Positions 3,001-6,000 of a stretch of 14,283 nucleotides of DNA are shown one piece after another (position 1 is the first letter of the stretch; the number at the start of each line of letters is the position of its first letter). A program made the position numbers. The DNA lies in the NCBI GenBank assembly GCA_043754515.1, contig JAYUUO010000092.1:1-14283 (forward strand), read 5' to 3'. This stretch comes from Armatimonadota bacterium (GTDB lineage: Bacteria > Armatimonadota > Armatimonadia > Armatimonadales > Armatimonadaceae).

Positions 3001-6000
3001 AAGGTACATGACCGGATGCCGGTAATGCTGTCGCGTGACGCCGAACCAATCTGGATGGATGCAACGGTGCGCGACACGGACGTTCTGCGAGCCTTGCTCA
3101 TACCGTACCCTGATCGCGAGATGGAAACGTTCGCCGTTTCGCGCCGGGTGAACACGCCGGGTAACGAAGGCGCGGATCTTCTGGAACGGGTTGTTTGAGG
3201 GGGGGTGACAGGAGGGGGGCGTGATTGTGTCAGCGTTTTAACTGGTCACGCGGGTCACGGCCACACGCGGGTTTCGCCCCGCGCGTCGGCGCGTCCCGCC
3301 GTGGCCACGGACCGTCGCGACGATCTGCTTGCTATGCTATGCGTTACGCGGTTCGTCGGGCATGCGTTTTACCTTCTCGCCTTATCGGTTCCCCGCCGAG
3401 AAGCGCACGTTCTGCAGGACGCGTAGCTGATACATCGTCAGGCCGATCAGGAGCGCGCCCATGATCAGCGCGGCGGCGGTCGCGTAGCCGAATTTCAGGT
3501 AAATGAACGCGTTCTGCCAGATCTCCAGACCTACCGTGTGCGTCGCGTAGTCCGGCCCGCCGCCCGTCTGCACCAGTACCGGCTCCATGATCTTGAACGC
3601 GGCGACGGTGGCGCCGACCAGATTGATGATCAGGAGCGGCGAGAGTGTCGGGAGCGTAACGCGGAAAATCTTCGTCCAGAAGCCCGCGCCGTCTAAATCC
3701 GCCGCCTCGTACATCTCGTCCGGGATGGATTGAAGCGCGGCGAGGTAGATCACGCTTCCCGGCCCCGCGCTCGCCCAGATGATCGGCACCACGACGCTGA
3801 ACATCGCCAGATTCGGGTCCTGTAGCCACGTCTGCGGCGGGGCGTGGAAGACGCCGAGCAGGGTGTTGGCGAGGCCGTTCGGGGACGGGTCGAAGAACTG
3901 CCGGAATAGCATCGCGGTCACGACTGACGTCGTAACGGCGGGCAGGTAATACAGCACCCGAAACAGTGTCTTGCCCTTCGGGATCTCGTTCAGCAACAGT
4001 GCGATCACGACCGGCAGGAAGAAGCCGAGCGTGAGCAGGTACGCGGTGAACAGGAACGCGTTCCGAAGCCCGATGCGGAACGTCTCCTGCCCGGCGGCTT
4101 CGATGAAGTTGTCCATCCCGACCCAGCGCGAGCCGCCCATTATGTGGACGTCCTGGAACGCCATGACCAGACCGCGCAGGAGCGGCAGGTACGCCCAAAC
4201 CGCGATGGACAGAACGGCGGGAAGCATGAACGCCCAGGCGGAAAGGTGGACGCGGAGTGGGACGGCGGTCGGGCGCAGTGTATCAGTCGACGCGTTTGCC
4301 CCCTGCCGCAGTCGCGCGACTTGGAGCGCAGCGTGTACGGTCCGCCCGATAAGAACCGTGATGCCGAGCAAGATCGCGGAGAAGATGGCCCAGGCGATGA
4401 TCCTTTTTCGAGCCAGTTCGGCGGGCGGCGTATAGTTGAGAAGTTTGGTGTTGATCTTCGCGACCGACGTGTCTAAAATCGCCCTCGCGTCGCGGTTCGG
4501 GTACAAAATCGCCTGATCCAGCGGCTCGTTCATCAACTTGTAGATAAACGCCATGTTCGGCCCGTTCGGCTCCGGCTTGCCCGCCGCGAACAGCGTCTTC
4601 GAGGCTTCCATCCACGGGCGTTGCATCGGCGTGATGTACTCCGAGTAGCCCCACTTCGCCAGTTCGTTCGGGTTGACCAGTTGCGCCATGTTGTTCTCGA
4701 CGTAGGCGGTGCAACGGATGCGGGCGGCTTCCGCGCTCGCCATGTATCGTATAAATTGCCAGCAGGCAGCGAGTTTTTTGGGGTCGGTCACGGTCGCGTT
4801 GATCGCCCACATGCCCGCGTTGATCTCGTTCCCCGAAACTCCGGTCGGTCCCTTCGGCATCGCGGCGACGCCGAGGAGCGACATGTTCAGGTCGAACTGG
4901 TTCATGTTCGTCACATCGTCGGACTGGTACGCGAACCACATGCCGATCTTCCCGCCCGAAATATCGGCCTTGCGCGTCGAGGTACGGTTGGCGACCCCAG
5001 TGCGCGTCTTGCCGTCAGGACCAGTCCACTTGCCGTAGATCAGTTTGCGGTAATACTCCAGCGCGGCGACGCCTTCGGGGGTGTTGAACGCGGCGAGTTC
5101 GGCGGACGCGCCGGGTACTTTGCGCGTGATCTCGCCCCCGGCCTGCCACAGGAAGTTGATCCAGTAGTAGGACTCCTCGCCCTGCTCGAACGTGAACCCG
5201 TACTGGCCTTTGGCGGGATCGGTCAGTTTTTGCGCGTACGTATAGAACTCGTCCCAGTCGCGCGGCGGCTTGTTCGGGTTCAGCCCGGCGGCGCGGAACA
5301 GGTCTTTGCGGTAGTAGAGGGCTTGTACATACTGCGCGTACGGGATCGAGTAGATGTGCCCGTCAATCGGGAGCCGCTCTTTGATGCGCGCCTGTACGCG
5401 ATCCAGAGTGTCCGGGTTTTGCGCCAGCAGATCGTCGAGCGGGCGTATGAAGCCCTGCGAGGCGTAGTTGCGCATCTGCCGCAGGTTGACGTACACCACA
5501 TCGGGCGCGGAGCCGCCCGCGTACGCCATCAGGATGCCGGATTCGGCGGCGGGCCCCTGGATTTGGAGCGAGGCATAGCGTTGCAGGCGGATCTCCGGGT
5601 GCTGCTTGCGGAACGTATCAAACACGACGCGCCGTGCGCGTTCCCCCGGCGAGGTAGAGTTCGGGGACGGGATGCCCCACGCCGGGTTCGCGCCGCCCAC
5701 GACCACCGTGATCGGCGTCGCCGCGTCAGGGGGGGACAATACCGCCGACGCGCCGGGTGACGCGGCGCCGGTCGTCTGCGCGCTGACGATGGGCGCGGCG
5801 AACAGGCTCAGGATCGCGGCGACGAGGCATACGAGGAGGGCGGCGGGTCTGGGGGGCAACATAGGCTCATTTTACGGGGTAAGGGGGTTTGTAACAAGGG
5901 CGAGGGATGGCGCGGGGCTTGTCGGTTGCCATGCCCTCTCTCCGTGCCGGAGAGGGGGGAGTAGTTTCGTCGGGGGCGTAGCATATTAGAAGACCCGACA

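Follow-up and report, generated by a model that had tools for sequence, protein, structure and literature searches.

The window, by which we mean the whole 14,283-nucleotide stretch of an Armatimonadota contig analyzed here, carries on its minus strand (5862..3382) a single open frame of 826 amino acids, P0001, in which a sugar-type solute-binding domain is fused to a permease subunit. An AlphaFold2 model of the chain has a pLDDT of 89.3 and a pTM of 0.87. The gene has no transporter neighbors. On one side lies an SRAP peptidase gene (2518-3198, plus), and on the other an unannotated open frame and a gene for a Uma2-like protein (6950-7615, minus). The window also holds genes for an HtrA protease (19-1755, minus), a proteasomal ATPase of the ARC/Mpa type with an AAA and two OB domains (8371-10146, minus), a LuxC-type acyl-CoA reductase (10339-11502, plus), a PD40 propeller (11684-12928, plus), and a tRNA-Asn (14192-14264, minus). 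None of the HtrA, SRAP, Uma2-like, LuxC-type, PD40, and tRNA-Asn genes is linked to the transporter. A promoter-like site at 5897-5869 is what chance would deliver (2 such sites found, against 0.8 +/- 0.9 in shuffles).

The fused protein and its relatives

The chain begins with a probable cleavable signal peptide (residues 1-28; 5779..5862), suggested by a hydrophobic stretch at residues 8-26. Such a stretch is found at the N-terminus of 100 of 109 relatives, and a lipobox-like pattern in 6 of the 109. The solute-binding domain (residues 50-476; 4435..5715) is followed by a short tether (477-485; 4408..4434) that leads from its last helix to an extra membrane helix (core 488-506, continuing as a long helix to 525; 4288..4407), where the chain passes from outside to inside. 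Next comes a permease domain of the MalF/UgpA/AlgM1 type with six helices (536-817; 3412..4257), assigned from profile matches and the model. It contains the EAA coupling motif (719-726; 3685..3708), which is present in 125 of 132 aligned proteins and in which E719 and A720 are invariant. All of these features are, of course, on the minus strand.

An earlier note on this DNA had described receptor and permease in one polypeptide, and this stands: Pfam places SBP_bac_1 at 68-380 and BPD_transp_1 at 618-808 of the 826-residue frame. The linker of about 230 residues that the same note put between them does not. The binding domain runs to residue 476, and the true junction is short; the span from column 463 to column 488 is 26 residues long in 129 of the 132 aligned proteins and 27 in the other 3. 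Profile matches, the structural model, and comparison with other receptors rule out a long linker that hides further domains. An extra membrane helix between the domains, which the note had thought possible, is indeed there, with a hydrophobic helix at this site in 126 of the 132 proteins.

For the receptor part, Pfam gives SBP_bac_1 and SBP_bac_8 only. The NCBIfam models score low throughout: MalE has 15.3 against a cut-off of 291, MalF has 67.4 against 392, and UgpA, the top model for the permease (538-817), has 100.9 against 335. AlgM1 (543-801, E 1e-25), SugA, and MalF are likewise matched by the permease.

When 8000 candidates (90% clusters) were scored, 469 relatives were found at E<=0.001, and both domain types are present in 117 of the best 120 of these. 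Some family members (L068, L079, P0354) carry large extra inserts, in frames of up to about 1,100 amino acids. Insert-bearing relatives give split matches near permease residue 670; the receptor of P0354 has Cys-rich inserts that resemble zinc ribbons, at a level below the Pfam cut-off.

The fusion had been called a phylum-wide Armatimonadota trait. This was too broad: of 201 genomes sampled from the phylum, 77 have the P0001 family, and these represent 19 of 40 families. The companion claim, that nearly all relatives are from Armatimonadota, holds for the closest ones, where 12 of the 13 organism-named rows among the best 120 of the 469 bear armatimonad names, and fails farther out. One Atlas cluster of the family is mostly Planctomycetota; 3 of 20 distant relatives carry organism names, and these are Planctomycetota, Verrucomicrobiae, and Hydrogenedentota. 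A GTDB scan gave, among the matches listed, 9 fused loci of 80, with 3 in Armatimonadota and 6 in PVC phyla. A trait of Armatimonadota only is thus rejected, the P0001 family being present also in Lentisphaeria, Verrucomicrobiota, Planctomycetota, and Hydrogenedentota.

The genome has a second fusion (C268:1-1626, L033), adjoined by its own second permease gene as the note had said. It belongs to a separate fused family, for which matches that span the junction were found in at least 102 of the 201 genomes; one family or the other is present in at least 126. In the partner permease on C268, the insert is smaller and helices are added at the N-terminus. In a quick tree of 114 permease domains, the P0001 family falls in an all-fused clade of 32 rows (SH-aLRT 99), the C268 family falls outside it, and well-supported branches force at least two changes. 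By placing the families apart, the tree does not favor a single origin for both fusions in this genome.

The partner subunit, its repeat domain, and the probable ATPase

The CUT1 inventory of the genome comprises two unfused operons (C150 and C94), the fused operon on C268, and two orphans, P0001 and P0121. The second orphan is a MalG-type subunit of 594 amino acids (C201:15218-16999, minus strand) that matches MalG, AlgM2, and SugB, with the EAA coupling motif in 128 of 129 aligned proteins. Each of the other three MalG-type genes has its own MalF-type neighbor. Three tandem secretin-like genes, recognized by eye, lie near the P0121 gene (L032:67-5012).

Both orphans were searched against the same 201 phylum genomes. 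With P0121 orthologues taken at E<1e-50 (the next matches are at 1e-35, and the rows were chosen after both tables were known), 78 genomes have one, and 77 of the 78 also hold a P0001 orthologue. The lone genome without it is 80% complete. A cut-off of 1e-61 for P0001, set post hoc, returns the same 77 genomes and one more, whose match is another fused family. The two genes are adjacent in 39 genomes, distant on the same contig in 15, and on different contigs in 23; in this genome's own order, the pair is split in 16 of 16 paired genomes. For 24 pairs (23 chosen because the genes are adjacent, and the pair from this genome), the trees of the two proteins mirror each other (rho 0.95, 14 of 21 splits in common, paralogues grouping with their own neighbors). 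Kin share both genes and trees, of course, and so the co-occurrence counts are not independent and the figures are inflated. Co-occurrence, adjacency in relatives, and mirrored trees together show, by computation, that P0121 is the partner of P0001. By sequence and fold features the two belong to a CUT1 importer, having a MalE-like domain, a MalF/MalG pair, and an EAA motif in both permeases; the earlier assignment of P0001 as a CUT1-type subunit with its receptor covalently tied to the permease (here MalF-type) is borne out.

The first periplasmic loop of P0121 contains 3-6 repeats of a module of about 70 residues, making some 340 residues of helical structure. The module matches subdomain H of GH42/GH14 glycosidases in both sequence pattern and fold. 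One database record labels a repeat-bearing permease a beta-galactosidase. For P0121, identification as a GH42 beta-galactosidase was rejected: it has no catalytic barrel with both glutamates, and the insert is modeled as helical repeats. The GH42 match covers only profile positions 153-210 of 376, between catalytic positions 136 and 295 (PMC5725463). Of 174 motif matches in the P0121-type repeats, 172 have a spacer of 6 residues and none has the FW pair; in the GH42 protein of this genome the spacer is 11. The loop Trp of GH42 is, judging from this spacing, presumably Trp-200. Foldseek alone found no match for the repeat domain, and an Atlas search with it gave leads only, all below 0.9. These leads include Atlas clusters of small hypothetical proteins (184-247 amino acids, from Lentisphaerota and Armatimonadota) that score 0.82-0.87 and may be free-standing repeats or fragments. 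Among the matches listed, a repeat-bearing partner adjoins the fusion at four PVC loci and lies upstream of it at one Fimbriimonadaceae locus.

The note had found no ATPase near the P0001 gene; in fact, an ABC ATPase is absent from all five CUT1 contigs. The only OB_MalK match in the genome is a MalK-type gene at C286:4734-5903 (L001:736-1908), unlinked to either orphan. Across the 201 phylum genomes, with 9 candidates scored per genome, exactly one MalK-type gene was found in 153 of the 154 that have a match at E<=1e-90. Such a gene is present in 72 of the 77 genomes with the P0001 family, and the five without are 69-89% complete. It seems that genomes of the phylum as a rule rely on one common ATPase, though some hold dozens of candidate sugar permeases, and the C286 ATPase probably powers the P0001/P0121 importer. 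With this genome at 92.7% completeness, a further ATPase or partner gene may be absent from the assembly.

Receptor residues 49-478 and P0121 residues 45-388 were folded as a complex, without the membrane domains. The score was 0.70 for this pair; of three controls, the best had 0.00. Of 157 solved complexes, 116 reach the docking mark, as do 2 of 215 mismatched pairs, a benchmark only roughly valid here because custom alignments were used. At least 52% of contacts recur between runs, and the pLDDT of the partner is at least 83. Modeled docking falls mostly on receptor residues 67-75, 388-393, and 408-413; the best of the contacts are those that residues 176-185, in the long loop of repeat 2, make with receptor residues 388-393, 408-409, and 72-75. 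The model also contacts receptor residues 187-198 and 326-329, assigned to the other lobe; the boundaries between the lobes are those that we take P0001 to share with the MalE topology. Conservation at the interface is 0.68 against 0.61 for the rest of the receptor, and 0.48 against 0.52 for the rest of the repeat side. No solved complex of the repeat domain is among the structure-search matches. The model supports the view that the repeat domain would bind the receptor domain.

The cargo is probably an oligosaccharide or a sugar derivative. It could not be named from solved relatives of the receptor, which are 14-23% identical to P0001 and bind many sugars and some non-sugars. The Trp in the GPW motif of one solved relative is Ser in 77 of the 132 aligned proteins, and polar and basic residues are kept in the cleft region where a Trp is usual. 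Nor could the cargo be named from neighbors, since only the gene pair itself is conserved (75 of 183 candidate neighbors scanned). Genes resembling heparinase II/III occur close to the pair at three distant loci (L064, L068, L084), too few to indicate a cargo.

Proposed mechanism and alternatives

It is likely that P0001, P0121, and the MalK-type ATPase of C286, the products of three unlinked genes, form one type I importer of the CUT1 class in this genome, with the repeat domain gripping the receptor. Here, the receptor would be held twice: a short C-terminal tether of fixed length would tie it to the extra helix of the MalF-type subunit, and the MalG-type subunit would grip the assigned N-lobe. 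The repeat domain would take the role that MalF P2 plays in E. coli, with another fold and from another subunit. Receptor and channel would be fixed at 1:1, the receptor would be permanently docked, and its ligand-driven closing would trigger ATP-driven alternating access as in MalFGK2.

A bolder version is conceivable, though we lean against it. The importer would then represent a distinct class whose receptor never leaves, with one lobe tethered, the other clamped, and closing that levers the gate directly. The clamp would be a glycosidase subdomain, lifted and repeated, that may still touch glycan, and the pair would have been passed on together through Armatimonadota and PVC phyla.

The repeat domain might instead mainly bind glycan, pre-capturing long oligosaccharides or guiding them to the receptor by means of the module that in GH42/GH14 enzymes forms a wall of the active site. 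This is quite unlikely, as the loop with the corresponding Trp is missing from the repeats (the spacer is shorter and the FW pair absent), the complex model uses them as a surface for docking protein, and no neighbor gene is conserved. A different proposal concerns the cargo, and is compatible with the three-gene mechanism: the importer may be a housekeeping one that recycles an envelope sugar or a glycerophospho-compound, rather than a nutrient importer. LpqY-SugABC is such a recycling importer, for trehalose. Both genes are kept at 45-70% identity, with orphans scattered among housekeeping genes in several families and no catabolic gene or regulator conserved beside the pair; the receptor keeps Arg75, Arg78, Arg128, Asn126, Glu346, and Asn348; and UgpA heads the NCBIfam matches. 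However, its score is far under the cut-off, Arg75 is within the predicted protein interface, and the P0001 family was not found in 124 of the 201 phylum genomes, including 2 of the 7 from its own family; recycling is rather unlikely.

That the subunits no longer cooperate, the orphan fusion pairing with some other MalG-type permease or decaying, might be argued from genes that lie on different contigs here and apart in every paired genome of the order. With both open frames intact and conserved, mirrored trees, and the other MalG-type genes already supplied with MalF-type neighbors, this is very improbable. An error of assembly or annotation that fused two genes can practically be dismissed. 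The assembly does consist of 313 contigs, and one contig end (C256:8014-8362), which begins mid-gene and is probably chimeric or strain-variant, is 95% identical to C268:2335-2683. Full-length frames of the P0001 type occur, however, in dozens of independent genomes, some of them single-contig, and therefore the fusion is not an assembly artefact; the fixed junction length and the confident single-chain model also speak against one.

In maltose-type importers, the way in which the receptor couples to the channel and sets off ATP hydrolysis is a matter of ongoing debate. The three-gene importer preferred here, with a receptor fixed at 1:1, an invariant tether, and a predicted second anchor, would be a stable object for cryo-EM and single-molecule studies of coupling. 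It also offers a transporter that puts a glycosidase subdomain to new use as a repeat module, a fold assignment for a domain mislabeled in databases, and a pointer to a widely kept cargo in poorly studied phyla.

Comparison with known importers

No literature on the P0001 family or the repeat domain was found in a search that most subscription papers lay outside, and the main text of the Fimbriimonas genome paper contains neither "fused" nor "fusion." Fusions of receptor and permease are noted in general in two papers (PMC3971661, PMC8276074), and other fusions in a third (PMC8461474). A fusion of MalE to MalF is described for the importer of maltose and maltodextrin in Bdellovibrio bacteriovorus (Licht et al., 2019, PMID 30193862; review PMC6906923; PDB 6ffl). 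Like P0001, this joins a CUT1 receptor to a MalF-type subunit, with receptor and transporter at 1:1. The fusion alone is therefore not new, contrary to what the earlier note had implied; what is new is the repeat-bearing partner, together with the double anchoring predicted here. The Bdellovibrio fusion binds maltodextrin, and the portions of the review that are available mention no repeat domain on MalG (PMC6906923). Its MalE (6ffl) is 17-18% identical to the P0001 receptor and ranks 18th of the listed rows, not above unfused receptors. Since it is no closer to P0001 than these are, sequence comparison suggests that the two fusions were probably separate events; the permease tree was made without the full Bdellovibrio protein.

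Pfam finds in P0001 no receptor domain of the betaine or amino-acid class. OpuA and GlnPQ have receptors of those classes and, unlike P0001, more than one receptor domain per complex; we know of no repeat-type partner domain for either. What they have in common with P0001 is a receptor and permease in one chain (PMC3971661). In Streptomyces, one separately encoded ATPase, MsiK, serves several CUT1 permeases (DasABC and others), whose operons lack an ATPase gene (PMC3924187). In the present genome, by comparison, the permease genes themselves also lie apart; in the phylum sample, a lone ATPase gene of this type is nearly universal (153 of 154 genomes).

Subdomain H of GH42, with inserts of GH14 and GH164, has the helical module of about 70 residues in common with the P0121 repeats. 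In GH42-type enzymes it is one insert in the catalytic barrel, where it aids trimers and the active-site wall (PMC7105311, PMC5725463). Unlike in these enzymes, the module in P0121 stands 3-6 times in tandem, without the barrel and without the Trp loop.

In E. coli, the P2 domain of MalF and the P1 loop of MalG hold the N-lobe of MalE through the cycle, as a review describes (PMC6906923). E. coli MalFGK2-MalE and the present importer have in common subunits of the MalF, MalG, and (here probably) MalK types, EAA loops, and a large domain in the periplasm, with a predicted role here, for holding the N-lobe. There, MalE is free and the holding domain is P2 (residues 91-276, Ig-like) on MalF; here, the P1 loop, the first of the MalG-type subunit, has grown into a helical repeat of about 340 residues as the predicted holder, with covalent attachment of the receptor besides.
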